DNA from: a virus
Taxonomy: Duplodnaviria > Caudoviricetes
DNA: 64,000 bases
Virus record (IMG/VR): IMGVR_UViG_3300015608_004761
Coordinates: 35,907-99,906 of that record
Strand: one strand, 5' to 3'
A program made the translations under genes and the position numbers. The stretch's first letter is position 1; each line of letters begins with the position of its first letter. Under the pieces are notes generated by a model. It made no database searches. It saw only the letters and a program-made list of their open reading frames with translations, and was not told the DNA's origin. Shown in pieces: positions 8,429 to 43,578 of the stretch.

Positions 8429-8435
8429 GTCTACC

Positions 8436-14242: not shown

Positions 14243-15010
14243 ATGAGGGATACAACGTCGCGATACTTCGATGAAGTCAGTCGATTGGAGCTGCCAACGC
14301 AGGCCCAGGAGCGGGCCGGGCTCCTCGACTACTGGCAACTTACGCAGGCCCACGAGCGTGAGACTGACCCCTCCAAGCGCGAGCAGATCGCCCGGCAGCG
14401 CGCCCGGAGGGGCCAGAAGATCGCGGAGGGCTACTTGCGGTTCGTCATCGGGAAGGCACGCGACCGGACACGTGACGAGGACCTCCTTCTGGACTTCATC
14501 GGAGCCGGGAACGAGGGCTTGATGATCGCGATCACCAAGTTCGACCCGGCGTACGACGTACGCTTCCTCACCTACGCCGCCCCGTGGGTGAGGGTGAAGA
14601 TGGACGAGGTGGCTCACCGCCTCGGGACGGTGCACGTCTCGGTCCACCAAAGAAAGCAGTGCATCCAGCGGGGCGAGGAGCCCCCCACGGCCACCCTGAC
14701 GCACGTCGATGACGTGCAACTGGTGTCCCCCTCGGACGTCGAGAGGGAGGCCGTGCCCGAGGGCCGGACGGCGCTCAAGTACCTGAAGCTGACGGGGCTC
14801 TCGCGGCGCGAGCGCGTGATCCTGGTCCTGTCGCTGGGCCTGCGGGGTGACCCGCAGGGCGACGAGGACCTCGCCCTCACGCTCTACTCGCTCGACGGGT
14901 CGATCTTCTGCGCCCCCGAGCTGCGCCGGATCCGCGAGGAGGCGCTGGGGAAAATGCGGCGCTGGGCCGGCGAACACCCCGACGAGGAGATGTTCGCCGA
15001 GCTCAGCTAG
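14243..15010 (+). CDS. Phage sigma70-family sigma factor
   Basis: Region 1.2-like SRYFDEVSRLEL; region 2 YLRFVIGKA..DFIGAGNEGLMIAITKFDP..RFLTYAAPWVR; region 4-like LSRRERVIL..RRIREEALGKMR. Confidence 0.85.
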   Translation: MRDTTSRYFDEVSRLELPTQAQERAGLLDYWQLTQAHERETDPSKREQIARQRARRGQKIAEGYLRFVIGKARDRTRDEDLLLDFIGAGNEGLMIAITKFDPAYDVRFLTYAAPWVRVKMDEVAHRLGTVHVSVHQRKQCIQRGEEPPTATLTHVDDVQLVSPSDVEREAVPEGRTALKYLKLTGLSRRERVILVLSLGLRGDPQGDEDLALTLYSLDGSIFCAPELRRIREEALGKMRRWAGEHPDEEMFAELS

Positions 15011-16580: not shown

Positions 16581-17111
16581 TCACTCTCCCGTCAGGTACT
16601 TGTCGAGGAAGCTCTTCTCCTCGGACGCTGCCGTGCCCGCCTCGCCCCGCCGGGCGGCCTCGGCCTCGGCGTAGCCGGGGTCGACGCGGCCGAACTCCCG
16701 CTCGACCAGACCCGTGCGGGTGCCGATCTCGCGGATGGCGACCTGACGGGGCTTCTCCAGGTCGGAGATCTCGATCGGATCGGTCAAGGGGTTCCCGCGC
16801 GCGTTCCCGCTCGACCACTTGGTGACGATGGCGCGCCCCGTGGGGCGGTCGGCGGGCGCCGGGGGCGCGGGAGGGGCCGGCGCGGGGGCCGGGGCGAAGG
16901 CCGTCGCAGACGGCGCCGGGGCGGGGGGCGCGGACGGGGCGGGAGGGGGCGGGGCAGGCCGCGCCGCCGGCCTCGGGTCGTCCACCCAGAGGTAGATCGT
17001 GCAGTTGTCGGGGACCTCGAAGTCCAGCAATACGCCGTACCCCCTCTGCTGGAGGTCCTGCTGGATCAGGGCCTTGACGTCCTCGGGACCGTACTGAACT
17101 TGCAGCTTCAT
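16581..17111 (-). CDS. Hypothetical protein with a Pro/Ala-rich linker
   Basis: Coupled to the SNF2 gene (4-nt overlap). Confidence 0.65.
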   Translation of the reverse strand: MKLQVQYGPEDVKALIQQDLQQRGYGVLLDFEVPDNCTIYLWVDDPRPAARPAPPPPAPSAPPAPAPSATAFAPAPAPAPPAPPAPADRPTGRAIVTKWSSGNARGNPLTDPIEISDLEKPRQVAIREIGTRTGLVEREFGRVDPGYAEAEAARRGEAGTAASEEKSFLDKYLTGE

Positions 17112-19131: not shown

Positions 19132-20850
19132 ATGTACGAACTAGACGCGATGGGGCCGTACCAGAACGGCGGCGGCGCCTACGGGCACCCGAACCCCCAG
19201 TACGACTACCTGAGCGGGTTCACGCCCAGGAAGCTCAAGGACCTGATCCGGCAAGCCGAGTACATCGGCTTCAACTCGGCGCACATCTACGGCGTCGTCC
19301 GCAAGTTCGGCGAGTACCCCATCACGGAGCTGGAGTACGAGACGGCCTCGGACTCCGAGCGCGAGCGGCACGAGAAGCTCTTCGACAACGAGCTGCGCTT
19401 CAAGGGGTTCCTCACGCTGGTCTCCTTCGATGTGTGGCTCACGGGCAACAGCTTCGTGAGCATGTACGAGCCGATCAAGCGGGACCTGCGGTGTCCGTCC
19501 TGCAAGATCCCCGAGGACGTCGCGGCGGCGGACTACACCTTCCACCTGGACCGCCTGGAGTTCCGGTTCAACTGCCGCAACTGCGGTCTGCGCAACCAGA
19601 TCGCCGAGGTCGTCGACCAGCCACTGCGCGAGCCGAGCCGCATCAAGCTCCGACGCTGGGACCCGAAGCTCATCGACATCGACTCGAACCTCATCACCGG
19701 GGAGGACGAGTACTACTACACGATCCCGCGCGCCTTCGTCGCCGAGGTTCGCGCGGGCAACAAGCTGAAGATCAACCACACGCCGATGGAGTTCCTCGCG
19801 GCGATGAGGGACCGGAAGATCTTCAAGTTCGCCCCCGACGCCATCTACCACATGCGTATGCCGGGCCCGGCCGGGGAGCAGGGCCAGTGGGGCTTCCCTC
19901 CCATCACGGCGGCCATCAAGCTCTTCCTCTTCGCGGCCGTGCTCAGGCGCGCCAACGAGGCGATCGCCATGGAGCACATCACGCCCTTCCGCGTGATGCA
20001 CCCCACGCAAGCGAGCAGCCAGGGCGACCCGCTCACGACCATCAACCTCGGGCGCTGGCGGCAGGAGCTGGAAGGGAACCTCCGCGCCTTCCGCAAGGAC
20101 CCCCTGCGCGTCATGTTCTCCCCGATCCCCATCGGCGTGCAGAACATCGGCGGCGAGGGACGCACCCTCCTGACGCTCGGCGAGCTGGAGCAGGCCGAGA
20201 AGAACATCGTCCTCTCGCTCGGCGTCCCGATGGAGTTCCTCACCGGGGGCCTCGGGCAGACGCGCGGCGACGTGACGCTCCGCATGATCGAGAACCAGCT
20301 CCGTACCCACATCGAGAACCTGAACGGGCTCGCGCAGTGGACCGAGCGGCGCGCGGCGGGGTTCCTCAAGTGGGCCTCGATCCCCGTGCGCCTCCAAGAC
20401 TTCAAGATGACGGACGACGTGGACGCCAAGCAGTTCCGTCTCCAGATGTGGACGCAAGGGAGGGTGAGCGACACGACGATGGCGCAGTCGCTCAACATGG
20501 ACCTCAAGAACGAGATGAAGCTCATCAAGCAGGAGCAGCTCGACCGCCAGCGCAACGAGAGCGAGACCCAGCTCGCCCTCCAGCGCCAACAGCAGGCCCT
20601 GTCGCTCACCTCGCAGCAGCGCGCCATGCAGGCGCAGGGCGGCGTGGCCTACGACCCGCAGCAGGTGCTGGCCGCCAACGCCCCCATCGCCCAGGAGCTC
20701 GGCGAGATGGACGAGGGCACCCGCCGGAGCCGCCTCGACGCCTTGCAGGGCGAGGACCCGGTCGCGTACGCTGTTGTCAAGATGCTCCTCGAACAGAAGC
20801 AACAGAACGACACGGCGCAGGCCAAGCAGCAGTCGCGAGGGGGTGGGTGA
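19132..20850 (+). CDS. Portal protein with an inserted CxxC..CxxC zinc ribbon
   Basis: Size; portal-like segments KFGEYPI, GNSFV, RWDPKLI, WGFPP, IVLSLGVPMEFL; Q-rich C-terminus. Confidence 0.65.
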   Translation: MYELDAMGPYQNGGGAYGHPNPQYDYLSGFTPRKLKDLIRQAEYIGFNSAHIYGVVRKFGEYPITELEYETASDSERERHEKLFDNELRFKGFLTLVSFDVWLTGNSFVSMYEPIKRDLRCPSCKIPEDVAAADYTFHLDRLEFRFNCRNCGLRNQIAEVVDQPLREPSRIKLRRWDPKLIDIDSNLITGEDEYYYTIPRAFVAEVRAGNKLKINHTPMEFLAAMRDRKIFKFAPDAIYHMRMPGPAGEQGQWGFPPITAAIKLFLFAAVLRRANEAIAMEHITPFRVMHPTQASSQGDPLTTINLGRWRQELEGNLRAFRKDPLRVMFSPIPIGVQNIGGEGRTLLTLGELEQAEKNIVLSLGVPMEFLTGGLGQTRGDVTLRMIENQLRTHIENLNGLAQWTERRAAGFLKWASIPVRLQDFKMTDDVDAKQFRLQMWTQGRVSDTTMAQSLNMDLKNEMKLIKQEQLDRQRNESETQLALQRQQQALSLTSQQRAMQAQGGVAYDPQQVLAANAPIAQELGEMDEGTRRSRLDALQGEDPVAYAVVKMLLEQKQQNDTAQAKQQSRGGG

Positions 20851-21209
20851 TGGCCGACCCGTGGGCAGAGCACGAGGGCTTCCGGGGCCCCAACGTCAAC
20901 ACCGTCAAGCCCGGCCGGGTGCACTACGACACGTTCGTCGTCTTCCGCCCCTACTACCTGTGCCCCGCCTGCAAGAAGGTGATGGCGCAGGACGACTTCC
21001 AGTACCCCGAGGACGACGACTACGTCTGTCCGCACGTCCGCCGGAGCGCGCTGGAGAAGATCATGGACAAGGTGATCGCCGGCACCGCGCAGAAGTTCTC
21101 GATGGACCAGCTCGTCATGGAGAGCGGCGTCGTCCAGGTCACGCTCGTCTGGGCGGACGTCGATCGGCCAAAGGAGGAAGGAGGGTGGTCGAGGCCCAGC
21201 CACATGTGA
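20850..21209 (+). CDS. Hypothetical protein (CxxC..CPH)
   Basis: TGATG coupling to the portal gene. Confidence 0.65.
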   Translation: MADPWAEHEGFRGPNVNTVKPGRVHYDTFVVFRPYYLCPACKKVMAQDDFQYPEDDDYVCPHVRRSALEKIMDKVIAGTAQKFSMDQLVMESGVVQVTLVWADVDRPKEEGGWSRPSHM

Positions 21210-21333
21210 TGGCTGGGCCCCGGTCACCGGTTGGTGTCGTCGTCAGAGGATGACGACGATGACGAACTTGAGCACGCTGGTCAGTACCATGCGCACCTCC
21301 TTCCGCATCCTTGTACCCTAACGAGAGCCCATT

Positions 21334-24300
21334 ATGAGCGAGCCGACGCCCATCCTCACCGACGCCTCCCACATCCGCGAGCGGATTCGGGAGAAAGCGA
21401 TCCAGACCGCGTACGCCGTATTCCCCCTGGAGGCCCAGGGGCGGAAGCTGGAGATCGAGGATGTCCACGTCCGCAACGAGCGTTACAGCCCGGTGCGAGA
21501 GGCGCGCGCGCTCATGACCGACGGGACGCTGTCCGAGGCGATGCGCGGGACGCTCGTTCTGCGCGACAAGGACGGCACGGTGCTCGACCGGGCCAAGAAC
21601 TTCACCATCGCGCACCTGCCGTACTTCACCGACCGCCACACGGTGATCGCGAACGGCAACGAGTACCAGATCGCGAACCAGCTCCGCAGGAAGCCCGGGG
21701 TCTACACGGCGCGCGCGGACAACGGGGAGCTCCGGGCCATCTTCAACCTGGGCCGTGGGAAGAACTTCGACCTCGGGTTCGAGCCCAACAAGGGCACCTT
21801 CCACCTCGCCTACGGCACGAGCAACATCCCGCTTTACCCAGTGCTGCGGGCGCTGGGCGTCTCACACCAGACGATCGCCGACCAGTGGGGAAAGGGTGTC
21901 GCGGACGCGAACCACACCGCCCACGGCCATCAGACCGAGAAGGCCGTGGCGAGTCTCTACGCCAAGGTCGAGCACCCGGTGGTGATGAACCCGAACCTGC
22001 CGCACGCCGAGAAGGTGACGGCGCTCCAGAGGAAGTACGACCAATCGACGCTCGACCCGCGCGTGACCGAGGCGACGCTCGGGGTGGCCTGGGATAAGGT
22101 GACGCCGCAGGCGCTCATCGGTGCGGCCAAGAAGGTGCTGGCCGTCCACAACGACAAGGCGCAGGTCGACGACACCGACTCGCTCACCTTCAAGACTTTC
22201 CACTCGATCGACGACTTCATCGCCGAGCGCATGCGCCTGACGGCCCGCGCGTGGGTCCCCGCCGCCAAGCGCGCCTTGAACGGCAAGACCAACATCCGCG
22301 AAGCCCTGCGCCCGGCGCCCTTTTCGGACGGGCTGCGCAAGTGGGTCACGACCTCGTCGCTCTCGGCCGTGCCAACGGGCATCAACCCGCTGGAGATGCT
22401 CGACCACGCCGTCAAGGTGACCTCGCTCGGCGAGGGCGGGATCCCCAGCGATCGCGCGATCCCGCTGGACGCGCGCATGATCCACAACACACACATCGGC
22501 GCGCTCGACCCGATTCGCACGCCGGAGTCGAACCATTCCGGGGTCGACATCCGGGCGACCCTGGCCGCGCACCGCGACAAGGAGGGCAACCTCTACACCG
22601 TCGTCAAGAACGTCAAGACCGGCAAGGAGGAGTTCCTCCGGTCGGGCGAGCTGCGCAAGCACGTCCTGGCCTTCCCCGGCGAGGACCTGCGCGGGCACGT
22701 GGACGCCTTCGTCGGCGGCAAGGTCGAGCGGGTGCCCGGTGATAAGGTCACCCACCAGCTCCTGCACACCGCCCACACCTACTCGCCCGCGACGACGCTG
22801 ATCCCCATGATCCACTCGATCCAAGGCAACCGCGCCATCATGGGGTCCAAGATGGGCACCCAGGCGCTGCCGCTGCTGGAGCGCGAGGCGCCGTACGTCC
22901 AGGTCCGCTCGCACCTGCCGGGCGGAGAGAGCTTCGAGACCGTCTACGGCCACATGTTCGTGCCGCGCGCGACGGTGAGCGGGACGGTGAAGAAGATCGA
23001 GGACGGCTGGATCTACATCAAGCCGGACAAGGAGCACGAGAAGAAGTCCGAAGTTCGCCGTGAGGATGACGACGTCGACGCGGACGGGGTGAAGGTCGCC
23101 GCCGAGGACGACGGGCTCGTCAAGGTGCCCTACCAGACGCTCTTCCCGTTCCCCTCCAAGACCTACCTGCACCACGAGCTCTCGGTGAAGCCGGGCGACA
23201 AGGTGCAGGAGGGTCAGCGCCTGGGCGAGTCGAACTACACCCGCAAAGGCACCCTCGCCCTCGGCAAGAATCTGCTCGTGGCCTACATGCCGTACTACGG
23301 CCTGAACTCCAACGACGCCGTCGTGATCTCGGAGGGTTGCGCGAAGAAGCTGACCTCTGAGCACATGTACCGCGAGGTCTACGCGCTGAACCCGCAGATC
23401 GAGCTCTCGCGCGAGAAGCACCGGATGTACTTCGGCAACAAGTACACCCGCGAGCAGTACGGCGTACTCGACGAGACGGGCGTCGTGAAGAAGGGCTCGC
23501 GAGTCCACCCGAAGGACCTCCTGGTCGCCGGGCTCACCAAGACCCAGGTGCTGGGCACGGACGCGCTCCTCGGGCGCATCTCCAAGAGCCTCGCCAAGCC
23601 CTACCAGGAGGTGACGCTCTCCTGGACCCACGGCACCCCGGGCGAGGTCGTGGACGTGGTGCGCACGGCCACGCAGATCGCCATCCTCGTGCGCACCCAC
23701 GAGCAGATGCAGGTCGGCGACAAGCTCTGCTACGACGAGCAGACGGAGGTTCTAACCGACCACGGGTGGAAGCACTTCGACTTGCTGGACCCCTTGACGG
23801 ATCGTGTGGCGAGCCTTGAAGGCGGGGCCCTCCGTTACGTGGAACCCGAAGCGTACCATCGGTACGCGCGCGGGGGTCGCATGTACGCCGTCTCGTCGCA
23901 ACAGCTCGACCTGTTCGTAACGGACCACCACGGGATGTACGTTCAGCGGCGCGGCGAGACCGAGTTCGCCTTGCGGCCGGCGGAAGACATCGCCGGCCAG
24001 CGGGTTCGATACAAGAAGGACGCGGACTGGCAGGGCGAGACGCCCGACCACGTGGTCTTCCCTTCGCTCACCGTCGCCGCAGGGCAGGGGGGGCGTGGGT
24101 CTCGCGTGCTGACCCCGCTGCGCATGCGAACGGACGCCTACGCCATGCTGCTGGGCGCGTACCTGTCGGAGGGGAACCTCGTCGATCAACCCGAGAGCGG
24201 CAGCTACGGGATCGACATCACGCAGATCAAGGAGCCCAACCGGGCGCGACTGCTCACGGAGCTCCGCCGCCTGGGGCTCAAGTTCAACGAGCACGGGCGC

Positions 24301-26910
24301 GGAACGAAGGTACGCCTCTACTCGAAGCAGATCCTGGAACACTTCCGCCAGTTCGGGCACAGCCACGAGAAGTTCATCCCCCCGTACGTTTTCGATTGGG
24401 ACCGGAACACGCTGCGGATCCTTTTCGACTGGCTGGTGTGGGGAGACGGGAGCGTGGCCAACGGCCGTCCCGTCTCGTACACGACGACGTCACCGCGTCT
24501 CGCCGACGACGTACAGCGGCTGTGCCTTCACGTCGGATTCGCGGGCAACGTGAAGCGGAAGAAGCACCACCCGCGTCAAACGATCAAGGGCGAAGAGTAC
24601 GATTGCCGCCCATGCTTCGACGTCCGAATCGTGACGACCAAGCTGCATCCCCAGGTCAACCACGGACACGCAACGTCGCAGAAGGCTCAACGCGAAGGGT
24701 TCGTTCCCGATTACGAATCCCCAGTCTTCTGCGTAACGGTACCTTCGGGGGTGATCTACGTCCGGCGCAACGGAAAGGGGGTGTGGTCCGGCAACTCGGG
24801 TCGCTACGGGAACAAGGGCGTCGTCGCCAAGATCCTGCCGGACCACGAGATGGTTCAGGACTCGAAGGGCCGCCCCATCGACCTCCTGCTCACCTCGGCG
24901 GGCGTCGTCTCCCGCATCAACCCCGCGCAGGTCATCGAGACGGCCGTGGGCAAGGTCGTCGAGAAGACGGGCAAGCCCATCGTCTTCGACAACAACGCGC
25001 GCGTCAACGCCGTCGAGTGGGCCAAGGGGCTACTGCGCGAGCACGGCGTCTCGGACAAGGAGCACGTCTACGACCCGCTCCAGAAGCGACGCATCGAAGG
25101 CCCGGACGGCAAGGGCGTGCTCGTCGGCCGGCAGTTCATCTACAAGCTCTTCAAGTCGACGGACACGAACTTCGCCGCCCACGGCGTGGGCCCCTACGAC
25201 TTGAACCAGCAGCCGCTCAAGACCGGCGGCGACGACTCGGCCAAGGGCCTCGGCAAGATGGAGTTCGACGCGCTCATCGCCCACAACGCGCGCAACTTCC
25301 TGCGCGAGGCGGCGACGGTGAAGGGTCAGAAGAACGACGAGTTCTGGAAGGCCCTCCAGCTCGGCATGCCGCTGCCCGCACCGAAGAGCCCCTTCGCGTT
25401 CCAGAAGTTCGTCGGGATGCTCGAAGGGGCAGGGCTCCGCGTGGACAAGCGCGGCTCGAAGATGAAGCTCCTGCCCATGACGGACCGGGACGTCCTCGCC
25501 CGGTCGCGCGGGCCCATCGAGAACTCCAAGACCCTCATCGCCAAGAACCTGAAGCCCGAGACCGGGGGGCTGTTCGACCCGCGCCTGACGGGCGGCCCCC
25601 AAGGCACGCTCTACGCGCACATCGACCTGCACGAGCCGATCCCGAGCCCCGTCTTCCAGGAGCCCGTGCGGCGCCTGCTGGGCCTGACGGGCAAGGAGTT
25701 CGACCGGAAGCTCGCCGAGCACGGCGGGCAATGGTTCCACGCCGAGCTCAAGGCCATGGACGTGGGGGCCAAGATGCGCGCGCTCCAGGGCCAGCTCGCG
25801 AAGGCCAAGGGCGCCGAGCTCAACGACGTCGTCAAGCAGATCAAGTACCTGAAGGCCCTCCAGGCCGAGAAGATGGCACCCCACGAGGCGTACATGATCT
25901 CCAAGGTGCCGGTGATCCCGCCCGTGTTCCGCCCGATCGTGACCCAGCCGGGCGACAGCTCGCAGGTCTCGATCGGGGACGCGAACAAGCTCTACGGGCA
26001 CCTCATGGACTCCAACGACACCCTGAAGGCGACGGCCCTGGAGAGCGACCGGGGTAAGCACCGCCAGCAGGTCTTCAACGCCGTGGCCGCGCTCTACGGC
26101 ACCGAGGACGTGGCGAACGACGAGCTGCGCGGGCAGTCCGTCAAGGGGTTCCTCTCGAACATCGCCGGAGTGGGCACGCCGAAGGGCGGGTTCTTCCAGC
26201 GCAAGCTCATGCGGCGCACGCAGGACGTGTCGGGTCGCGGCACGGCCGTCCCGGACGCCAACCTCGGCATGGACCACGTCGGCATGCCCGAGCCGATGCT
26301 CTGGGGCATGTACGACAAGATGATCGTCGCGCGGCTCGTGCGGCAGGGCTACCCGGCGCTGGAGGCGCGCGAGCGCGTGACCAAGCGGGACCACGTGGCG
26401 CGCGAAGCGATGCTGGCCGAGACGCGCGAGCGCCCGGTGCTCATCAACCGGGCGCCGACGCTCCACCGATGGTCGATCGTGGCGGCCTACCCAGTGCCCG
26501 TCCAGGGGAAGACCATCCGCGTGAACCCCTTCATCGAGAAGGGCATGAACCTCGACTACGACGGCGACACCTTGCAGGTCCACGCGCCCATCACGCACGA
26601 CGCGATCGAGGACGCCCGCAAGATGACCCTGTCGCAGATGCTCCTGGCCGACCAGACGCACTCACGCCTCATGGCCTTCCCGCAGCACGAGGCGATCATC
26701 GGCTTCACCCACGCCTCCAAGGCCGTGGCCTCGGGCGCGAAGCCCCGCGAGTTCGCCTCGGCCGACGAGGCGGTGAAGGCGTGGCGCCGGGGAGAGATCA
26801 AGCTGAACGATCCCGTGACGCTCAAAGGGACCAAGACCGCCTCCGAGCAGGACCCAGACACGAACCTCACCCGCCTGCTATCCTGGCTGGAGAGCCAACC
26901 CGATGGATGA
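21334..26910 (+). CDS. Phage RNA polymerase: beta subunit fused to the N-terminal half of beta', interrupted by an intein
   Basis: Beta motifs PIRTPES, NRAIMGSKMGTQA, LGKNLLVAYMP, GDKL/SGRYGNKGVV, GVVSRIN, QQPL..GKME; beta' motifs GGLFD, VIPPVFRP, DVSGR, NRAPTLHR, catalytic NLDYDGD. Confidence 0.92.
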   Translation: MSEPTPILTDASHIRERIREKAIQTAYAVFPLEAQGRKLEIEDVHVRNERYSPVREARALMTDGTLSEAMRGTLVLRDKDGTVLDRAKNFTIAHLPYFTDRHTVIANGNEYQIANQLRRKPGVYTARADNGELRAIFNLGRGKNFDLGFEPNKGTFHLAYGTSNIPLYPVLRALGVSHQTIADQWGKGVADANHTAHGHQTEKAVASLYAKVEHPVVMNPNLPHAEKVTALQRKYDQSTLDPRVTEATLGVAWDKVTPQALIGAAKKVLAVHNDKAQVDDTDSLTFKTFHSIDDFIAERMRLTARAWVPAAKRALNGKTNIREALRPAPFSDGLRKWVTTSSLSAVPTGINPLEMLDHAVKVTSLGEGGIPSDRAIPLDARMIHNTHIGALDPIRTPESNHSGVDIRATLAAHRDKEGNLYTVVKNVKTGKEEFLRSGELRKHVLAFPGEDLRGHVDAFVGGKVERVPGDKVTHQLLHTAHTYSPATTLIPMIHSIQGNRAIMGSKMGTQALPLLEREAPYVQVRSHLPGGESFETVYGHMFVPRATVSGTVKKIEDGWIYIKPDKEHEKKSEVRREDDDVDADGVKVAAEDDGLVKVPYQTLFPFPSKTYLHHELSVKPGDKVQEGQRLGESNYTRKGTLALGKNLLVAYMPYYGLNSNDAVVISEGCAKKLTSEHMYREVYALNPQIELSREKHRMYFGNKYTREQYGVLDETGVVKKGSRVHPKDLLVAGLTKTQVLGTDALLGRISKSLAKPYQEVTLSWTHGTPGEVVDVVRTATQIAILVRTHEQMQVGDKLCYDEQTEVLTDHGWKHFDLLDPLTDRVASLEGGALRYVEPEAYHRYARGGRMYAVSSQQLDLFVTDHHGMYVQRRGETEFALRPAEDIAGQRVRYKKDADWQGETPDHVVFPSLTVAAGQGGRGSRVLTPLRMRTDAYAMLLGAYLSEGNLVDQPESGSYGIDITQIKEPNRARLLTELRRLGLKFNEHGRGTKVRLYSKQILEHFRQFGHSHEKFIPPYVFDWDRNTLRILFDWLVWGDGSVANGRPVSYTTTSPRLADDVQRLCLHVGFAGNVKRKKHHPRQTIKGEEYDCRPCFDVRIVTTKLHPQVNHGHATSQKAQREGFVPDYESPVFCVTVPSGVIYVRRNGKGVWSGNSGRYGNKGVVAKILPDHEMVQDSKGRPIDLLLTSAGVVSRINPAQVIETAVGKVVEKTGKPIVFDNNARVNAVEWAKGLLREHGVSDKEHVYDPLQKRRIEGPDGKGVLVGRQFIYKLFKSTDTNFAAHGVGPYDLNQQPLKTGGDDSAKGLGKMEFDALIAHNARNFLREAATVKGQKNDEFWKALQLGMPLPAPKSPFAFQKFVGMLEGAGLRVDKRGSKMKLLPMTDRDVLARSRGPIENSKTLIAKNLKPETGGLFDPRLTGGPQGTLYAHIDLHEPIPSPVFQEPVRRLLGLTGKEFDRKLAEHGGQWFHAELKAMDVGAKMRALQGQLAKAKGAELNDVVKQIKYLKALQAEKMAPHEAYMISKVPVIPPVFRPIVTQPGDSSQVSIGDANKLYGHLMDSNDTLKATALESDRGKHRQQVFNAVAALYGTEDVANDELRGQSVKGFLSNIAGVGTPKGGFFQRKLMRRTQDVSGRGTAVPDANLGMDHVGMPEPMLWGMYDKMIVARLVRQGYPALEARERVTKRDHVAREAMLAETRERPVLINRAPTLHRWSIVAAYPVPVQGKTIRVNPFIEKGMNLDYDGDTLQVHAPITHDAIEDARKMTLSQMLLADQTHSRLMAFPQHEAIIGFTHASKAVASGAKPREFASADEAVKAWRRGEIKLNDPVTLKGTKTASEQDPDTNLTRLLSWLESQPDG
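23728..24795 (+). mobile_element. 356-aa intein with LAGLIDADG homing endonuclease
   Basis: Starts CYDEQTEVLT, block B VTDHH, LAGLIDADG boxes LGAYLSEG and WLVWGDG, ends WSGN before Ser; removal restores GDKLSGRYGNKG. Confidence 0.92.
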
Positions 26911-27385
26911 CTTCCCTGCCGACATCGACGGAATGCTGAAGGCCGCCGAGGACCCGGAGCCGGAGCCCGACCCCGTGCCGGGCCTCGTGCGCAAGCTCCT
27001 CTCCGTCAAGTACGCCGTACTGCTGGCGTACGTGAGCTACGGCGACCAGCTCCGGGGCGCGAACCGCGACGGGCTCTACGAGCACTTCCAGGAGCACGTG
27101 AAGGACGAGCGCCGCTCGATCTACGAGTTGAACCGTCACCTCGCCTCGCGGGGGGAGGTGCACGTGCCGCACAACGTCACCATCCCCGAGGTCGAGCTCG
27201 GGGGCCCGGTGCCGCTCCTCGGCGTGCTCCTCCAGTTCGAGGAGGCCGCCCTCGAAGCGTGGCGCGAGCTCTTCCGCGCGATCCCGCCGAACAAGAACGT
27301 GGGGCTCTCGGGCTTCGCGCAGAACGGCGCGCAAGCCCAGCTCGCCCACGTCGAGGACCTGCGTCGCTGGGGGGCCCGGTCGTGA
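26903..27385 (+). CDS. Ferritin/Dps-like four-helix-bundle protein
   Basis: FQEHVKDERR, EEAALEAW, HVEDL pattern. Confidence 0.55.
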   Translation: MDDFPADIDGMLKAAEDPEPEPDPVPGLVRKLLSVKYAVLLAYVSYGDQLRGANRDGLYEHFQEHVKDERRSIYELNRHLASRGEVHVPHNVTIPEVELGGPVPLLGVLLQFEEAALEAWRELFRAIPPNKNVGLSGFAQNGAQAQLAHVEDLRRWGARS

Positions 27386-27600
27386 AGCGTGTCGAGGTGT
27401 CCATGGGCCCGATCGTCCGGGGCGACGCGGGGAAGTTCTCCGGCACGCGCCACGCGTTCACGCAGGCCGAGGAGGTGCTCAAGAAGTACGCGCTCCTGGC
27501 GGACAAGGGCAACCCGGCGGACTTCCTCGCCAAGCTCTTCCGCTCGAACCACTTCGGCTACGACGCGAAGACGAACCCCCTCAACCGGCGATACCCGTGA
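27382..27600 (+). CDS. Hypothetical protein
   Basis: GTGA overlaps at both ends. Confidence 0.6.
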   Translation: MKRVEVSMGPIVRGDAGKFSGTRHAFTQAEEVLKKYALLADKGNPADFLAKLFRSNHFGYDAKTNPLNRRYP

Positions 27601-29396
27601 CAACCACCGTCGGTCACCTCCTCATCAACGCGGCCCTCCCTGACACGCACCAGATCTCGGGGCCCGTGACCAACAAGTTCCTCCACGACCACGTGGTGGA
27701 CTTGGCCCGCTCGGACCCGCAGAAGTACGTGCGCACCGTCACGGACCTGAAGCGGCGCGGGGACGAGATCGCCACGCTCGAAGGGATCTCGGTGGGCCTG
27801 GACGACATCCGGCCCGACTACGCCGCGCGCGACGCGATCGTGAAGCCCGCCGTCGCCGCCCTGCGCAAGGCCACCTCGACGGGCGAGAAGGAGCGGGTCA
27901 TCACCGAGGCGCAGAGCCGGATGCTGGCGTACACCAAGACCCACCCGGGCTCGATGACGCACATGGCCCTCTCGGGCGCGCGCGGCAACCCAGCGCAGCT
28001 CATGAAGATCGTGGGGACGCCGCTCGCGACTACGCACCCGCGCGAGGGCCTCGTGCCGCGCGTCCTGGAGCGGTCGTACTCCGAGGGGCTCTCCCCGGCC
28101 GACTACTGGCTCACCGGGCCCGAGGTCCGGGCCAACGAGGTCGCGGCACGCATCTCGGTGAGCGAGCCCGGCGAGATGGCCAAGGTGCTCGTGGCGAACA
28201 TGATCTCGAACGTGGTGACGACGCACGACTGCGGCACGCACGCGGGCGTGCGCCTATCGCTCTCAGACACGCACGTGCTCGACCGCTACGCCCAGGACAA
28301 CAAGGGCGTCCCGCGCAACACCCTGGTGACCCCGAGACTCGTCCAGTCGCTCAAGGCCCAAGGGACGACGGACCTCTACGTGCGGTCGCCCATGACGTGC
28401 GGGGCGAGCAGAGGCGTCTGCCAGATGTGCCAGGGTCACAACGAGAAGGGTCAGCCCCAGCCCATCGGGATGACCGTCGGCGTGCGGGCGGCCCAGGCGA
28501 TGGCCGAGCCCCTCACCCAGATGGCGCTCTCCAGCCGACACGGAACGCTCACCGTCAAGATGACGACCAAGAGCCCAACGGGGCTGAAGGGCGTTCGTCA
28601 GTTCCTGGAGATCCCCAAGGCGTTCCGCCACGAGGCGGCCCTGGCGCCGGTCACGGGTCAGGTCACGGCCGTCGAGCGGGCGCCGCAGGGCGGCCACTAC
28701 ATCCGCGTGGGGACCTCGAAGCTCTACGCGGACCCGGAGCTGGAGCTGCGCGTGCGCGTGGGCGATCACGTCGAGGCGGGCGACGCGCTCACCGACGGCG
28801 TGCCTCACCCGGCCAAGGTGGTCGAGCACAAGGGTCTCGGCGCGGGGCGCGAGTACTTCGTGAACGCCCTGCACAAGGTCTACAAGGACGAGGGCGTGAA
28901 CCTCGACCGGCGGCACCTGGAGCTCCTCGCCAAGAGCGAGATCAATCACGTGCGTCTGGGCGAGGTGGACCCCCGCCACCCCGAGCTGCTCAAGGGCGAC
29001 GTGGTGAACTACAACACCTTCCGCGACGCCTACGCCACCGACGCCCACCCCGTGCCGACCGAGCGCGCCGTGGGGATGCGCCTCGGCAAGGAGGTCCTGC
29101 ACCACACGGTGGGCACGCCCGTGACGGAGAGCCTCGCGCGCGAGCTGCGCGCCCGGGGCGTGGGCGAGGTGCACGTCGCGCGCGGCATGCCAGCCGTCGA
29201 GTTCGTGATGAAGCCCTTCACTATGAACCCGCTCCTCGACAAGGACTGGATGGCGAGGCTCGCCCACCGCTACCTGAAGAGCACCTTGCAGGACGCCGCC
29301 CACACCGGGGACGAGGCGGACCTGCACTCCACCCACCCCGTCCCGGCATGGGCCTTCGGGGCCGAACTGCACCACGGGGCGGGCGGCAACTTCTGA
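27597..29396 (+). CDS. Phage RNA polymerase beta' C-terminal subunit
   Basis: TTVG, SGARGN, SYSEGLS, DCGT, RSPMTC..GVCQMC, trigger loop AAQAMAEPLTQMALSSRH, RHLELL. Confidence 0.9.
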   Translation: MTTTVGHLLINAALPDTHQISGPVTNKFLHDHVVDLARSDPQKYVRTVTDLKRRGDEIATLEGISVGLDDIRPDYAARDAIVKPAVAALRKATSTGEKERVITEAQSRMLAYTKTHPGSMTHMALSGARGNPAQLMKIVGTPLATTHPREGLVPRVLERSYSEGLSPADYWLTGPEVRANEVAARISVSEPGEMAKVLVANMISNVVTTHDCGTHAGVRLSLSDTHVLDRYAQDNKGVPRNTLVTPRLVQSLKAQGTTDLYVRSPMTCGASRGVCQMCQGHNEKGQPQPIGMTVGVRAAQAMAEPLTQMALSSRHGTLTVKMTTKSPTGLKGVRQFLEIPKAFRHEAALAPVTGQVTAVERAPQGGHYIRVGTSKLYADPELELRVRVGDHVEAGDALTDGVPHPAKVVEHKGLGAGREYFVNALHKVYKDEGVNLDRRHLELLAKSEINHVRLGEVDPRHPELLKGDVVNYNTFRDAYATDAHPVPTERAVGMRLGKEVLHHTVGTPVTESLARELRARGVGEVHVARGMPAVEFVMKPFTMNPLLDKDWMARLAHRYLKSTLQDAAHTGDEADLHSTHPVPAWAFGAELHHGAGGNF

Positions 29397-30248: not shown

Positions 30249-32165
30249 ATGCGCCTCTTCCCCCGAACCTTCTTCCAGGGCATGCACGACTCCCTCGTCG
30301 ATGCGGGTGCCATGCACCCCTTCCCCACCGACAAGATCGCGATGGCCGTGTTCGACCAGCTCGCGGACGAGGCGGGGTTCCCCCCGATCCTGGAGGCGCC
30401 CGTGCCCAAGACGGCCGCCGTCCAGCTCGCCGGCCGCATGAAGATGGCCTCCGACCGCATCGCGCAGTCGGAGTACGCACCCTCGGTCACGCGCATCGCG
30501 CAGGCCAAGTACGCGAGCTCCTTCGACCTGGAGGACCGCGCGGGCATGGTCGCCGAGTTCTACATGGAGAAGGCCGCGAGCGAAAACTCGCTCACCCCGC
30601 AGGGCGAGAACACCCTGGCCGACGCGGCCGGCTACGACACCGTCGCCGCGCTCGACAACCGCAACCGCCCCGAGGGGACCTACACCCACGGCGAGCGCGG
30701 CGGCACCAACCTCCCCACGCCGGGCATCCTCGGCCGCGAGGTCGCGGCGCCCGGCGCGCCGATGGCGAAGAAGGCCAACCTGGAGAGCATCCTGGCCGCG
30801 TTCAAGGCCGCCCCAAGCCGGATCGGCGAGCACGCCTCTCAGATCGGCAGTCGCCTCACCAGCAACCCCGTGCAGAGCGCCCGCACCGCCCTCAACGCGA
30901 TGGGCGATCTGCGCGCGATGGCGCGGAACAACGGCGCCGTTCGCAGCTTCACCAACGTCGCCGAGCACGGCCAGCGCCTCTTCGAGCGCAACGAGGCGCT
31001 GAAGAACCTCGCCACCCAGGCGGGGGCGGGGGCCGTCGGTATCGGCAGCATCGGTGCCGGGGCCATGGGCATCCGCAGCCTGATGGGCGGCGGCAAGCAG
31101 GAGCCCGCCCCCGAGGACATCGCCAAGGCGGCGATGGAGGTGTGCGCCAACGAGGACATGCCGGTCGCCGACGTGGTGGGCGGCGGTGGCGAGATGGGCG
31201 GCGCGGACCCCGAGCAGATGGGCCGCGTGATGACGTTCCTGCACGCGCTCAAGAACAAGATCCCCGGCCTGCGGCCGAGCCCGGAGGCGCAGATCGGCGC
31301 GGCGGGCCTCGGGGAGCAGGGCGAGCAGGGCCTCCAGGTGATGGCACACGTGCTGGAGACCGCCAAGACGGCCGAGGAGGCCGACGGGATGCTCCAGCAC
31401 ATCCTCCAGGTGCTCACCGAGCAGGGTGTTCCCCCGTCGCCCGAGCTCGTGCAGGCGATCAGCGAGGCGCTCTCCGACGAGGGCGGCGGCGAGCACCCGA
31501 CGGCGGGCGCGCCGCCGCCCCCGCCCTCGGACGGCGGCGGTGGCGAGGTGCCGCCCGACGCGAAGACGGCCGGGATCATGGACCGCCTCCGCGCGGGCGG
31601 GAAGTCGGTCTCGGACGCGGCCGGTCGCGGCACCAAGGCGGTGGGCGACGCTGCGCGCTCGGCGGGCAACGCGGTGATACACAACAAGCTGCGCACGGCG
31701 GGCGGCGTCTTGGGCTCGGCGATCCTGGTCGGCGGCGGCGTCGCGGCCAAGAACCACTTCGGCAAGAAGAAGGAGGACGAGGCCTCGAAGACCGCCGAGG
31801 ATTTCTGGAACTCGATCCTCAAGCAGAGCGGCGACGGCAACGACGGCTCGCTCACCTCGCAGGGGGAGAACACCCTGGCCGACGCGGCCGGCTACGACAC
31901 CGTCGCCAAGCTCGACCTGCGGAACCGCCCCGAGGGGGCCTACGCCACGGCGCAGGGCCAGACCCAGCTCAAGACCGAGTCCGGCGAGGTCGGCGACGAG
32001 AAGAAGGCCGAGGACGCCTACTGGGACAACATCCGCAAGGTGGCCGAGGAGTGGGGCGCCAAGCTCCCCGCCGCGATGGCCATCGAGGACAAGCGCGCCG
32101 CGATCCAGAAGATCGCCTCCGTCGCCCCGAGGGAGCGCGCCGCGCTCGTCGCCGGCCTGCGCTGA
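30249..32165 (+). CDS. Putative internal virion polyprotein with more than 10 KxA motifs and a duplicated module
   Basis: AAGGAG RBS; internal repeat GENTLADAAGYDTVA. Confidence 0.7.
   Translation: MRLFPRTFFQGMHDSLVDAGAMHPFPTDKIAMAVFDQLADEAGFPPILEAPVPKTAAVQLAGRMKMASDRIAQSEYAPSVTRIAQAKYASSFDLEDRAGMVAEFYMEKAASENSLTPQGENTLADAAGYDTVAALDNRNRPEGTYTHGERGGTNLPTPGILGREVAAPGAPMAKKANLESILAAFKAAPSRIGEHASQIGSRLTSNPVQSARTALNAMGDLRAMARNNGAVRSFTNVAEHGQRLFERNEALKNLATQAGAGAVGIGSIGAGAMGIRSLMGGGKQEPAPEDIAKAAMEVCANEDMPVADVVGGGGEMGGADPEQMGRVMTFLHALKNKIPGLRPSPEAQIGAAGLGEQGEQGLQVMAHVLETAKTAEEADGMLQHILQVLTEQGVPPSPELVQAISEALSDEGGGEHPTAGAPPPPPSDGGGGEVPPDAKTAGIMDRLRAGGKSVSDAAGRGTKAVGDAARSAGNAVIHNKLRTAGGVLGSAILVGGGVAAKNHFGKKKEDEASKTAEDFWNSILKQSGDGNDGSLTSQGENTLADAAGYDTVAKLDLRNRPEGAYATAQGQTQLKTESGEVGDEKKAEDAYWDNIRKVAEEWGAKLPAAMAIEDKRAAIQKIASVAPRERAALVAGLR
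30587..31943 (+). repeat. Direct repeat of about 97 bp (30587-30683 and 31847-31943) inside the CDS
   Basis: Near-identical DNA and peptide, offset 1260 bp. Confidence 0.9.
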
Positions 32166-38906: not shown

Positions 38907-40700
38907 GTGCGCAAGCTCCTCGAACTCGACCAGTACTTCCCCAAGACGGGGGAGCCGACAGTGCAACTGGCGGCCTTCGCCAACCAGCGCGGCGGCCTCT
39001 CGATCGAGAAGCGAGCCTTCGCCGAAGGTCACTCGCAGTTCTATGACTTCCTGAAGACCGTCCAGCCCGAGCCGGGGATCACCTACCTGCTCGTGAACGC
39101 GATGGGCTCATGGGAGTACTACGACCTGAACCGCAACGCGGACGGCTTCCCCGAGCGGGCGTACATGGTCGGCACGCGCGCCAAGTGCGGCCACCCCGAC
39201 TGCACGCTGAGCCTGGACGGCTGGGTGAGCGAGCCCGAGACGCTCGTCCACCACTACAAGACCTTCGAGGAGTCGGGCGGCATCTACCGCCACCACAAGA
39301 ACGACGACCCCTCCAAGAGTCGCGGGACGGTGAAGCCCGCCCTGTGGAACGCCCGGATGCACCGGGTGGAGCTGCTCCTCCGGTACGTGAACTCCCGCGA
39401 CCCGGAGATCCCCTCCAAGATCGCCGACGGGGTGTTCCCGGCCGTCTCGATGGGCTGCCGCGTCGCCTACGACGTGTGCACAATCTGCGGCCACCGGGCG
39501 CCCACGCGCGCGCAGTACTGCTCGCACGCCCTCAGTCAGATGAACGCGATCCTCCCAGACGGGAGGAAGGTCGGGGTGCTGAACCCACGGCCCCGGTTCT
39601 TCGACATCTCGTTCGTCTTCCGACCCGCCGACCCGACGGGCTGGACGCTCCAGAAGGTCGCGCGCCACGGCGGCATGTCGTCGGCCGAGCTCGGCGAGCT
39701 GATGGACCGCGCGGAGGGCTCGCGCCTGCCGTTCTGGTCCACGGCCAAGGAGATCAACGCCTCCTGGGACGAGCCGGGGAGCTTCATGGGACGCTTCGTG
39801 CGCGGGTCGTTCCCGAGCGGGAAGGTGGCCGGCGCACCCTCGACGCTCCTGGAGCTGGCCGCCTCGCCCGTCCCGCACCCCCAGTCGCTCGTGGCCAAGC
39901 TCGCCTCCCAGGCCCTCGGGATCCCGCTCACCGACGACATGGTCGACCGACTCGTGTGCGCGACCCCGGCCCTCGTCGCCCTGGTCGGCGAGTCCTCGGA
40001 GACCGTCAAGCACGCCTCCTTCGGCGAAGCCGGCGACGTCCTCCGAGACCGCGCCTACGCCCCCTGGCCCGACGTGCCGAGCGTGGACGTGGGCCCCGGC
40101 GCCCTGCACCGGGCGGCCGAGCCCCCGCGCACGGACCTGCTCACGATGACCGACCCCTTCACGGGGGCTGTCTACCAGACGACGCGCGGAGCGGCCCAGG
40201 ACGCGACGCGGGAGGACGTGAAGAAGCGGCTCCTGAACACCGCCCTCCTCACGGGCCTCTACGCGGCGGGCCTGCACAAGGCGCTCAAACCGACGGGCCT
40301 CGGGGGCCTCGGACGCGCGGCCGTCGCGTTGCCGGTGGGAGCACTCCTCGGCCGGGCGACCGAGCGCGGTATCCACAACGTCCTCGAACCCTACCGACAC
40401 CCGTACTACCAGACCGACCAGGGCGTCCCCGTCTCCGGGGGCACCGAGTTCAAGGCGGCCTCGATCGAGCCCTCCTCCTGGGCGCGAAAGCTCGCCTCGG
40501 ACCTGGAGGAGCGCGACGCCGCCCGCGCCCGGATCGCCCGGCGCGGGGGGCACCGATTCTTGAAGTGGGCCGCGAGCCCCTTGGACCTCCAGGTCCGCTC
40601 ACTCGCCGGGGAAGACCGCGCCCCCGAGGAGCCGTACGCCGTACGACCCGACGACGCCCGCGACATGGCCGAGCGTCTGACGTTCCTGCTGACCACCTAA
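38907..40700 (+). CDS. Prohead maturation serine protease (HK97/assemblin-like) with Zn finger and long C-terminal extension
   Basis: His region YRHHKN..SRGTV, Ser motif VSMGC, CTIC..YCSH, FFDISFV..PAD; upstream of the capsid genes. Confidence 0.7.
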   Translation: MRKLLELDQYFPKTGEPTVQLAAFANQRGGLSIEKRAFAEGHSQFYDFLKTVQPEPGITYLLVNAMGSWEYYDLNRNADGFPERAYMVGTRAKCGHPDCTLSLDGWVSEPETLVHHYKTFEESGGIYRHHKNDDPSKSRGTVKPALWNARMHRVELLLRYVNSRDPEIPSKIADGVFPAVSMGCRVAYDVCTICGHRAPTRAQYCSHALSQMNAILPDGRKVGVLNPRPRFFDISFVFRPADPTGWTLQKVARHGGMSSAELGELMDRAEGSRLPFWSTAKEINASWDEPGSFMGRFVRGSFPSGKVAGAPSTLLELAASPVPHPQSLVAKLASQALGIPLTDDMVDRLVCATPALVALVGESSETVKHASFGEAGDVLRDRAYAPWPDVPSVDVGPGALHRAAEPPRTDLLTMTDPFTGAVYQTTRGAAQDATREDVKKRLLNTALLTGLYAAGLHKALKPTGLGGLGRAAVALPVGALLGRATERGIHNVLEPYRHPYYQTDQGVPVSGGTEFKAASIEPSSWARKLASDLEERDAARARIARRGGHRFLKWAASPLDLQVRSLAGEDRAPEEPYAVRPDDARDMAERLTFLLTT

Positions 40701-42654: not shown

Positions 42655-43578
42655 ATGAACTACGGAATCGAAACCCTGGACGTCAAGGCCCAGGTCCTCA
42701 ACCAGAACTTCATCGACCTGATCGGCAGCGGCCAGATCAAGCAGGCCGAGGAGGCCGGGTCGATCCTCATCCGCGAGATCGTCCGCCAGGACGCGGCGGT
42801 TCGCGAGATCCTCCCCTGCCGCCAGATCGCGCCGTCGGAGCTGGACATCTGGCCCGACTCGGACGCGCCGATGAAGTTCCTGGACATCGAGACGCAGACC
42901 GTCGCGTCCTACGTCCAGTTCTACGGCACCCCGAAGGCCAACTACTACACCCTGCGGCACGTCCCGGTCTTCTTCGGGAAGATCCAGTCGGACGAGTTCG
43001 TCAAGTCGAAGTTCGAGCTCATGAGCTACCGCACCGACGTGCGCAAGCTCCTGGCCGACAACTCCACCAAGGACATCGCCGACCAGGAGGACATGTTCTT
43101 CCGCCGCGCGTGCCTCCAGGCCGTGAACCGCAACCCGAGCCTCCAGCGCACGGAGCTCCCGCGCCTGACGGCGACCGGCTGGGCCCAGACCCTCACCGCG
43201 ATGGACAACCGCCGCCGCCCCGTGGGCAAGGCGCTCATGAGCAAGGCGCGCCACCGCGACGCGATCGACCTCCCGGCGACGGCCGTGGGCACCGACATCG
43301 CCGCCGAGCACTACCGCAACGGCATCGAGAAGGAGGATGGCCTGTGGGGCACCCCGCTGGTCACCACCATCAAGAGCGACATCTACCTGCCGGACGAGGC
43401 GTGGATGTTCGTGCCGGAGAACTACCTCGGCCGTTTCTGGACCCTCCAGGAGCCGACGCTCTTCGTCGAGCAGCGCGCCGACATCATCAAGTTCTTCATC
43501 TACTCGGCGCCCGGCATCGGCCTCCCGTCGCTGCTCGGCATCCAGCAGATGGTCTTCACGCCGCGCGCGCCGGCCTGA
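42655..43578 (+). CDS. Major capsid protein (HK97 fold, predicted)
   Basis: 307 aa; synteny protease-scaffold-decoration-capsid-neck; KDIADQEDMFF spine-helix-like segment; very high GC3. Confidence 0.7.
   Translation: MNYGIETLDVKAQVLNQNFIDLIGSGQIKQAEEAGSILIREIVRQDAAVREILPCRQIAPSELDIWPDSDAPMKFLDIETQTVASYVQFYGTPKANYYTLRHVPVFFGKIQSDEFVKSKFELMSYRTDVRKLLADNSTKDIADQEDMFFRRACLQAVNRNPSLQRTELPRLTATGWAQTLTAMDNRRRPVGKALMSKARHRDAIDLPATAVGTDIAAEHYRNGIEKEDGLWGTPLVTTIKSDIYLPDEAWMFVPENYLGRFWTLQEPTLFVEQRADIIKFFIYSAPGIGLPSLLGIQQMVFTPRAPA

Follow-up and report, generated by a model that had tools for sequence, protein, structure and literature searches.

The 64-kb stretch of DNA analysed here (the window) is the right-hand part of a 99.9-kb IMG/VR record of a tailed phage (IMGVR_UViG_3300015608_004761; about 69 % GC, estimated completeness 58 %). 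Two of its genes, at 21334-26910 and 27597-29396 on the plus strand, encode a multi-subunit RNA polymerase (RNAP) of the bacterial type. The first gene joins a one-piece beta to the N-terminal half of beta' (beta::beta'N) and is interrupted by an intein; the second encodes the C-terminal half of beta' (beta'C). We consider it probable, though well short of certain, that the locus represents the catalytic core of a phage-owned two-gene RNAP which is loaded into the virion, driven by sigma factors and trimmed at K-x-A motifs. An initial annotation of the stretch had proposed a compact, re-split polymerase; architecture, compactness and re-splitting stand, and the intein as well as the association with two sigma-70-family factors had been overlooked.

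The large subunit

The elements of the two RNAP genes are the following (window coordinates, strand):

21334..26910, plus: RNAP large subunit precursor, beta::beta'N, 1858 amino acids (aa), identified by Pfam and by BLAST against E. coli RpoB/RpoC
23017..23136, plus: acidic variable loop in the SBHM domain of beta, holding K587-V-A-A at nucleotide (nt) 23092
23728..24795, plus: intein with LAGLIDADG homing endonuclease, 356 aa, identified by LAGLIDADG_3 and by empty alleles
25438..25473, plus: beta / beta' junction, beta end ...GLRVDK then beta' start RGSKMKLLPMTDRD...
25564..25623, plus: deleted Zn1 ribbon site of beta', GGLFDPRLTGGPQGTLYAHI, a gap compared with E. coli C70-C88
26548..26568, plus: catalytic beta' motif NLDYDGD, aa 1739
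26833..26907, plus: K1834-T-A-S and C-terminal tail, a candidate cleavable propeptide judged by K-x-A conservation
27597..29396, plus: beta' C-half, 599 aa, Pfam Rpb1_4/Rpb1_5

Along the open reading frame (ORF) 21334-26910 the Pfam domains RNA_pol_Rpb2_2, Rpb2_3 and Rpb2_6 are followed by RNA_pol_Rpb1_1 and Rpb1_2, with a LAGLIDADG_3 match in between. After removal of the intein, BLAST aligns residues 28-1015 with residues 55-1338 of E. coli RpoB and residues 1097-1496 with residues 173-581 of RpoC. In the multiple alignment the C-terminus of beta passes straight into the N-terminus of beta' (E. coli beta 1342 / beta' 1). The Pfam domains and the motif NLDYDGD at aa 1739 (nt 26548) thus bear out the earlier observation of one ORF running from beta motifs into beta' motifs through the catalytic site. 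An AlphaFold2 (AF2) model of the C-extein, with a predicted local distance difference test (pLDDT) of 76, has an ordered junction (pLDDT 80-95 near residue 218), and its top 50 fold matches are exclusively bacterial beta', gamma and RpoC1 chains. Among solved structures the nearest chains and folds likewise belong to bacterial beta', cyanobacterial gamma and plastid RpoC1 and not to the phiKZ/AR9 enzymes. Both TIGR models, rpoB and rpoC, match at E 1e-50 to 1e-63. For the two beta' halves alike the rpoC model (rpoC_TIGR) gives E 1e-50, a score far below the equivalog cut-off, and the enzyme is therefore a distant homologue.

Of the catalytic elements, NLDYDGD (for NADFDGD), the bridge helix and the trigger loop all align. 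Excision of the intein would restore the beta lysine motif GDKL|SGRYGNKG (Pfam Rpb2_6, E 3e-37), and the alignment to E. coli retains the clamp helices and a flap-tip-like helix, TDALLGRISKSL. One of the two zinc sites of beta' is kept (Zn2); the other, the Zn1 ribbon (E. coli beta' C70, C72, C85, C88), has been removed by a clean deletion of 32 residues which is common to gp206 of Salmonella phage Arash, and the N-terminal zinc cysteines reported missing at first are indeed absent, as the gap opposite E. coli C70-C88 demonstrates. The sequence insertions SI1, SI2 and SI3 are absent as well. The two chains together have 1502 + 599 = 2101 aa, whereas beta and beta' of E. coli add up to 2749 aa; lacking SI1, SI2, SI3 and Zn1 as well, the enzyme is compact, as had been claimed. 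In the rifampicin pocket the alignment displays the substitutions Q513A, D516T, R529K and S531T relative to E. coli, and rifampicin would probably not inhibit the enzyme.

The intein in the active-site motif of beta

The intein comprises residues 799-1154 (C799 ... N1154 | S1155) and splits GDKL|SGRYGNKG. Its termini are those of a class 1 intein, with Cys1, a C-terminal Asn and Ser at position +1. Taken alone the segment matches LAGLIDADG_3 (PF14528) at E 1.8e-9 and, in NCBIfam, the intein portions of the DnaB, GyrA, PolII and RNR models; a search of the intein sequence against PDB chains gave no match. A TDHH block is found at intein residues 65-68, together with the LAGLIDADG-like motifs LLGAYLSEGN and LVWGDGS. 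The penultimate residue is Gly, not His, likewise in all alleles at the GDKL site. As the insertion interrupts the beta lysine motif of the active site, the intein must, to judge from the sequence, be spliced out before the enzyme can work; the spliced subunit is predicted to have 1502 aa.

Comparison of alleles defines the insertion precisely. Inserts at the exact GDKL site occur in 20 of 114 aligned homologues, either as mini (143-147 aa) or as full inteins (about 350 aa). Empty alleles read GDKL|AGRxGNKG, and the intein is precisely absent from alleles of 80 % identity; a syntenic relative on a 182-kb scaffold (L016) has a 1513-aa gene without intein. The large-subunit family as a whole appears as an intein hot spot with four insertion sites among the 114 homologues: TPE|C..N|S (28 homologues), GDKL|C..N|S (20 including the window), SR|C..N|T (2) and an insert of about 500 aa inside NLDYDGD itself (18 homologues, with Hom_end and LAGLIDADG_3 matches). 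Large-subunit homologues that carry inserts reach 2682 aa.

The C-terminal half of beta' and the position of the split

Beta'C contains the F-loop, bridge helix, Zn2, a trigger loop without SI3 and the C-terminal region. The Zn2 site reads HDCGTH; C-x6-C-x2-C, and the trigger-loop His equivalent to H936 is kept. The MAFFT alignment against E. coli is unreliable at the C-terminal half of the trigger loop and at the C-terminus of beta', where the ranges of BLAST and of the hidden Markov models (HMMs) were used: by BLAST beta'C corresponds to E. coli RpoC 721-936 plus 1195-1319, and it covers positions 549-1067 of TIGR02386 rpoC (E 3.8e-50). The closest solved chains are bacterial beta' subunits, and the identity to gp216 of Arash is 31 %.

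According to the sequence comparison the phage beta' is cut at the domain boundary that also separates gamma from beta' in cyanobacteria and plastids, because residues 114-316 of beta'C are in register with positions 114-334 of the cyanobacterial rpoC2 model, because beta'N covers positions 181-566 of 619 of rpoC1 (gamma) and ends about 40 residues before the model does, and because the gamma/RpoC1 sequence and fold matches agree. Between the two genes lie a ferritin-like gene and an ORF of 65-72 aa, and the remainder of beta' is hence located two ORFs downstream, as described before. Many homologues of beta'C possess a C-terminal extension of 400-800 aa or inteins inside beta'C.

Distribution, cultured relatives and evolution

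The source of the sequence is a metagenome, and this is the sole point in favour of regarding the fusion as an error of assembly or gene calling, or the intein-bearing gene as a dead pseudogene. We assign this explanation a negligible probability. Eleven contigs, drawn from one JGI assembly and three from ENA, encode the identical 1858-aa protein. When the part across the junction served as query in a word-indexed search, 1017 proteins were retrieved; those listed all carry PF00562 and PF00623 in one chain and measure 1457-2682 aa. The GC content at third codon positions (GC3) of the large ORF is 0.93, like that of its neighbours, and gp206 of the cultured phage Arash was seen with 128 unique peptides in virion mass spectrometry (MS) (PMC10585845). 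The identical protein on eleven contigs and more than 1000 fused homologues thereby exclude an artefact at the beta-beta' junction, the error for which a check had been called. Beta'C has 604 homologues of near-equal length, and an exhaustive search of 50 %-identity representatives yielded 1104 clusters at E <= 1e-30.

A collection of 50,697 phage records gave no match to the locus in megablast. With tblastn the same records yielded full-length matches only in Salmonella phage Arash (181 kb; OQ632216) and in D69, D148 and D181 (187 kb), which infect Vibrio; the identity is about 31 %. Over its full length the large subunit is 34 % identical to Arash gp206, a protein of 1525 aa annotated as 'beta', and gp216 is the Arash beta'C. 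The Arash genes follow one another as portal gp204, small gp205, gp206, nine others, gp216, helicase gp217, structural proteins and major capsid protein (MCP) gp226. The arrangement portal-small ORF-RNAP...protease...MCP is common to the window, Arash and D181. D181 and D148 encode their large subunit in two ORFs (515 + 1006 aa), between which small ORFs and a homing-endonuclease gene are found, the whole occupying 5650-11164 in D181; this interruption could be an intron or a real split. D69 gives a single unbroken match to the large subunit. Ralstonia phage RP13, whose annotation reads 'beta/beta-prime', was discarded as a relative: its split enzyme is a different one and resembles that of phiKZ. 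Searches of the literature turned up no account of the architecture beta::beta'N plus beta'C.

The evolution of the split was surveyed in the 150 best representative clusters for beta'C. In 133 of them beta'C stands alone, in many cases with inteins or C-terminal extensions, and three are beta'N+C fragments. The other 14, two of which look truncated, carry beta, beta'N and beta'C in one chain. The untruncated single-chain forms (P0320, P0326, P0345, P0361, P0388 and others) measure 2013-2077 aa when free of inserts, and inserts lengthen them to as much as 2876 aa; they come from uncultured lineages and were found in no cultured phage of the searched collection. In a quick IQ-TREE analysis (LG+G4) of the beta'C region with four bacterial outgroups, none of them cyanobacterial, a 17-row clade that is mostly unsplit (13 joined) stands against a 73-row clade (SH-like approximate likelihood ratio test, SH-aLRT, 94) that is almost entirely split and contains the window, Arash and D181. 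Both clades tether beta to beta' and the outgroups are unsplit, and the simplest explanation is that the ancestor had beta::beta' as a single chain, into which a cut at the D/E boundary was introduced afterwards, the split being the derived state. The tree is the product of a short search, the split clade includes two joined exceptions, and some of its rows may be gene-call fragments. An earlier placement of the fused forms as a basal grade (FastTree, with E. coli as single outgroup) was replaced by the sister clade of the IQ-TREE analysis with four outgroups. The wording 're-split' fits this tree, with whole beta::beta' chains in related lineages and a split clade set against unsplit outgroups.

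Alpha, omega and sigma partners

HMMs for alpha (PF01000) and omega (PF01192) matched 14 of 14 control genomes, but neither the 99.9-kb, 58 %-complete record nor Arash nor Vibrio phage D181 gave a match. The genomes of Arash and D181 are complete, and the statement that no alpha or omega gene is visible therefore extends from the record to two cultured relatives. Each of the three carries one PF00562 locus and one PF00623 locus, and each has Sigma70_r2 matches above the cut-off. The 119-aa and 65-aa ORFs that flank the RNAP genes were considered as omega-like partners and dropped; they have no family match and no similarity to the co-positioned small ORFs of Arash or D181.

A combination of the phage subunits with host alpha2 (and omega) to a hybrid, alpha-dependent enzyme is conceivable in view of the bacterial character of the enzyme throughout, seen in its rpoB/rpoC scores and its closest folds, and no phage-encoded alpha substitute was recognised. 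We judge it rather improbable: known phage multi-subunit RNAPs function without alpha or omega according to reviews, the tether between beta and beta' (complete in the single-chain relatives) makes a bridging scaffold unnecessary, and an enzyme carried in the capsid would need to bring host alpha along.

The sigma factor inside the window is:

14243..15010, plus: sigma factor A, 255 aa, Sigma70_r2 E 1.3e-7, phrog_351 sigma factor

Sigma A has its Arash orthologue near 121 kb. The gene for sigma B occupies positions 19763-20467 of the record, outside the window; sigma B has a Sigma70_r3 match and is the orthologue of the virion-detected Arash gp10 (E 1e-24). Its AF2 model (pLDDT 86) matches in fold only the sigma factors WhiG, SigA, SigS and SigB. 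Among its 127 homologues many are located on long contigs matching in size those that carry RNAP homologues, and one is also present on the 182-kb scaffold of L016. From this co-occurrence, from the joint detection of sigma and RNAP in Arash particles and from the retained sigma-binding elements we infer that the sigmas serve the phage core and not the host core. The two phage sigmas probably define how the RNAP initiates.

Gene order and probable virion packaging

The remaining genes of the locus and its surroundings are:

19132..20850, plus: portal protein, 572 aa, 32 % identity (E 1.5e-76) to Arash gp204
26903..27385, plus: ferritin/Dps-like gene, 160 aa, Pfam Ferritin E 4.4e-6
27403..27600, plus: small ORF between the RNAP genes, 65 aa (72 aa from GTG 27382)
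38907..40700, plus: candidate prohead protease, 597 aa, match to phrog_18299 (head maturation protease) at E 3.7e-7
42655..43578, plus: MCP, 307 aa, 39 % identity (E 1e-59) to Arash gp226

Pfam and PHROGs gave no match for the portal, the MCP and most head ORFs, and these were identified with the help of the annotated Arash genome and of ESM-Atlas. In ESM-Atlas all named clusters nearest to the portal ORF 19132-20850 are portal families (score 0.93), and the candidate protease 38907-40700 is 41 % identical to the Arash structural protein gp222. The matches to gp204, gp222 and gp226 confirm the proposed position of the RNAP locus between portal and head genes.

For the loading of the enzyme into heads there is evidence from Arash. 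In MS of its virions gp206 was the top protein with 3516 spectra, above the MCP, and gp216 (1210 spectra), sigma gp10 (467 spectra) and, in abundance, the helicase gp217 directly after beta'C were detected as well (PMC10585845). The authors name a 'beta' and a 'beta-prime' and do not mention the fusion (PMC10585845). Head loading, as claimed for the window phage, is thus supported indirectly, by the orthologues and the sigma in Arash virion preparations and by the kept synteny; for this phage itself it is probable by analogy.

A purely intracellular RNAP for middle and late genes would give a different account of the same data. Host RNAP, possibly redirected by a phage sigma, would read the early genes, and the position beside the head genes and the detection in Arash particles would be incidental. 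The Arash preparation contained 116 of 272 phage proteins (PMC10585845), among them ribonucleotide reductases, primase and RNA ligases, which speaks for carry-over of non-structural proteins, and phage sigmas normally act with the host core (Iyer 2021, Sokolova 2020). Nevertheless we regard this account as unlikely: gp206 is the most detected Arash protein and exceeds even the MCP, the RNAP genes lie between portal and head genes in three distant lineages, the large subunit carries conserved K-x-A motifs of the type enriched in head-region ORFs, and there is a single RNAP set per genome.

K-x-A motifs and possible protease maturation

The two motifs flagged in the initial annotation are present, KVAA at nt 23092 and KTAS at nt 26833. 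The total number of K-[TVILSAKH]-A motifs in the RNAP is 3 against 5.3 expected (z -1.1), with none in beta'C, and the count test was replaced by tests of conservation and of position relative to anchors. Since the homologues are related, the counts that follow are not independent events. The first site is conserved in 84 and the C-terminal site in 92 of 114 homologues; the third occurrence, situated in a conserved domain, is kept in one.

The first site belongs to a loop at E. coli beta ~744, the only extein segment of at least 12 aa that is absent from E. coli, and this loop is hypervariable (44-560 aa) across homologues. In an anchor test that needs no alignment, 74 of 80 homologues (14.7 expected) have a K-x-A no more than 14 aa from the 3' anchor of the loop, and 66 of 80 (12.6 expected) have one no more than 12 aa from its 5' anchor; in the window phage only the 3' motif is present. 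At the C-terminal site a K-x-A is found 9-30 aa past the anchor in 77 of 78 tailed homologues (6.7 expected). The tails that follow have 15-58 aa, 29 % of them acidic and 2 % basic, and 14 homologues are tailless. K1834-T-A-S lies in a disordered linker of low pLDDT in the AF2 model. In some relatives (P0143, P0148, P0141) the beta loop contains an inorganic-pyrophosphatase-like (PF18823/PF00719) or an AAA_18 kinase-like domain, and such cargo domains are flanked by K-x-A on both sides, as if they were to be freed by the head protease.

K-x-A motifs are also frequent among the structural genes. Five head-region ORFs (30249-32165, 32190-34709, 35473-36276, 38907-40700, 40722-41180) are enriched with z 4.6-8, the enrichment concerning K-x-A followed by A, S, E or G. 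One of them, of 152 aa, has six evenly spread copies; the MCP has one, at residue 29. A K-x-A that is preserved amid unrelated sequence supports its role as a candidate processing site. The proposal of protease maturation is accordingly backed in an indirect manner, in that the two flagged motifs are conserved within hypervariable segments; that they are cleaved in this phage we infer from sequence conservation.

The motif might instead serve a purpose other than proteolysis, for example docking or the marking of a charge boundary, and the large subunit would then stay intact apart from intein splicing. This deserves serious consideration, even if we hold it to be somewhat improbable. The protease specificity is deduced from motif enrichment, and the total count in the RNAP is at chance level. 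It is opposed by the presence of K-x-A at both flanks of a loop of unrelated content and before a tail of varying length and sequence, by the retention of the third motif, in a conserved domain, in one of 114 homologues, and by the sixfold recurrence in the 152-aa head-region ORF.

Proposed course of events

From the features described, gene 1 would give rise to a precursor in which beta is followed head-to-tail by the first ~580 residues of beta'. Splicing of the intein would rebuild the lysine motif of the beta active site, and gene 2 would supply the remaining beta' with bridge helix, Zn2 and trigger loop. Initiation would take place with the two sigma-70-family factors of the phage, as the clamp helices and the flap-tip-like helix are kept. 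A head protease may trim the large subunit at K-x-A, in the surface loop of beta and before the acidic tail, as motif conservation indicates. By analogy with Arash, and from the gene position, the core and sigma B would be built into the head and ejected with the DNA for early transcription independent of the host. Later genes are probably also transcribed by this RNAP, with a switch of sigma, because it is the only RNAP set in the complete relatives.

Several points weigh against this scheme. Packaging rests on a relative of 31-34 % identity; many enzymes occur in the Arash virion preparation, so that carry-over is a likely possibility. The K-x-A count of the whole RNAP does not exceed chance, and Arash gp206, in which both the variable loop and the C-terminal tail are absent, is for this reason uninformative on processing. 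The intein ends in Gly-Asn and misses the penultimate His, splicing being a prediction from sequence. As the record is 58 % complete, the remainder of the genome could encode a second RNAP or an analogue of alpha or omega, and host alpha could still be used.

In a more far-reaching form, which we put forward tentatively and consider unlikely to hold in full, the large subunit would be a carrier polyprotein that enters the prohead along with beta'C and sigma B and is cut there at K-x-A by the head protease, and the resulting enzyme would be the sole, host-independent RNAP of the phage. The cuts would remove the acidic tail and open or excise the variable beta loop, and the injected enzyme would be a protease-made three-piece, sigma-dependent holoenzyme free of alpha and omega.

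Further features of the locus

The start of the ferritin-like gene overlaps the stop codon of the large subunit; it is found in the same place in L016 and is absent from Arash. The stop codon of the 65-aa ORF overlaps the GTG start of beta'C (GTGA). A gene for an SNF2-family helicase (17108-19111, minus strand) is divergent from the portal gene and adjoins the RNAP genes; in the literature SNF2 helicases co-occur with the RNAPs of jumbo phages. A perfect 9-bp hairpin at 21196-21226 (GGCCCAGCC ... GGCTGGGCC) spans the stop codon (21207-21209) of the 119-aa ORF, and a TACCCT element at 21315-21320 is located 14 nt 5' of the RNAP start codon. Scans of 19-30.5 kb for consensus promoters and terminators found nothing.

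Significance and comparison with known systems

Reviews describe phage multi-subunit RNAPs as devoid of alpha, sigma and omega homologues, and large phages that encode sigma factors as devoid of RNAPs (PMC7598289, PMC7824862, PMC13282480). In the present family sigma and RNAP occur together, with a minimal core of two chains (one chain in relatives) and no alpha or omega. As the family is widespread and has a cultured Salmonella member, the questions that it raises are directly testable: how a bacterial-type core assembles without alpha, how an enzyme of about 230 kDa plus sigma is packed into a capsid and ejected from it, and whether a single RNAP with two sigmas can run the whole phage programme. 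Moreover, inteins have entered the catalytic motifs of this family at four or more sites, which makes it an unusually rich intein target, and structural work would gain an RNAP that is compact and probably dependent on sigma.

The nearest known systems are Arash and the Vibrio phages D69, D148 and D181, which also have a beta::beta'N of about 1500 aa and a beta'C of about 600 aa. Arash and the Vibrio phages share the Zn1 deletion, the portal-RNAP-head synteny, two orthologous sigmas and a single RNAP set without alpha or omega. Arash differs by its 31-34 % identity, by the lack of intein, beta loop and C-terminal tail, and by nine unrelated genes between its two RNAP genes. The RNAPs of phiKZ and AR9 are likewise phage-encoded two-barrel enzymes without alpha and omega whose beta' is divided into N- and C-terminal halves, and phages of the phiKZ type possess a virion-packaged form. 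However, their beta consists of 2-3 polypeptides, whereas that of the window is one piece fused to beta'N; they have two paralogous sets (virion and non-virion) where the record, Arash and D181 have one each; and in place of a sigma-70 homologue they use gp68/gp226, while the record, Arash and D181 have Sigma70_r2 matches. The PHROG families of the phiKZ type match weakly (E 1e-5 to 1e-16), compared with 1e-38 to 1e-63 for full-length bacterial-like families.

The fusions of Helicobacter and Wolbachia (NCBIfam PRK09603, PRK14844) are similar in joining the end of beta directly to the start of beta', but they contain the whole beta' and work with alpha2 and omega, whereas the beta' of the window is cut again at the D/E boundary; a fully fused chain of about 2050 aa is seen in related phage lineages only. 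Cyanobacteria and plastids divide beta' into RpoC1 and RpoC2 at the same boundary; in cyanobacteria, by contrast, beta is a separate subunit and RpoC2 has a very large SI3. The phage split appears, on sequence grounds, to be independent of the cyanobacterial one, since in the tree the phage clade does not fall within the four bacterial outgroups, none of which is cyanobacterial, and has unsplit sister lineages. The virion RNAP of N4 is carried in the capsid, injected and used for early transcription without the host enzyme, as may also be the case for the window phage; in contrast to the enzyme described here it is a single-subunit, T7-like polymerase of unrelated fold. The architecture is real and, as initially claimed, distinct from the polymerases of phiKZ, N4 and crAss phages. 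An RNAP composed of beta::beta'N and beta'C, without alpha or omega and paired with its own sigmas, represents a new variant of the phage multi-subunit RNAP, and one that is probably carried in the head.

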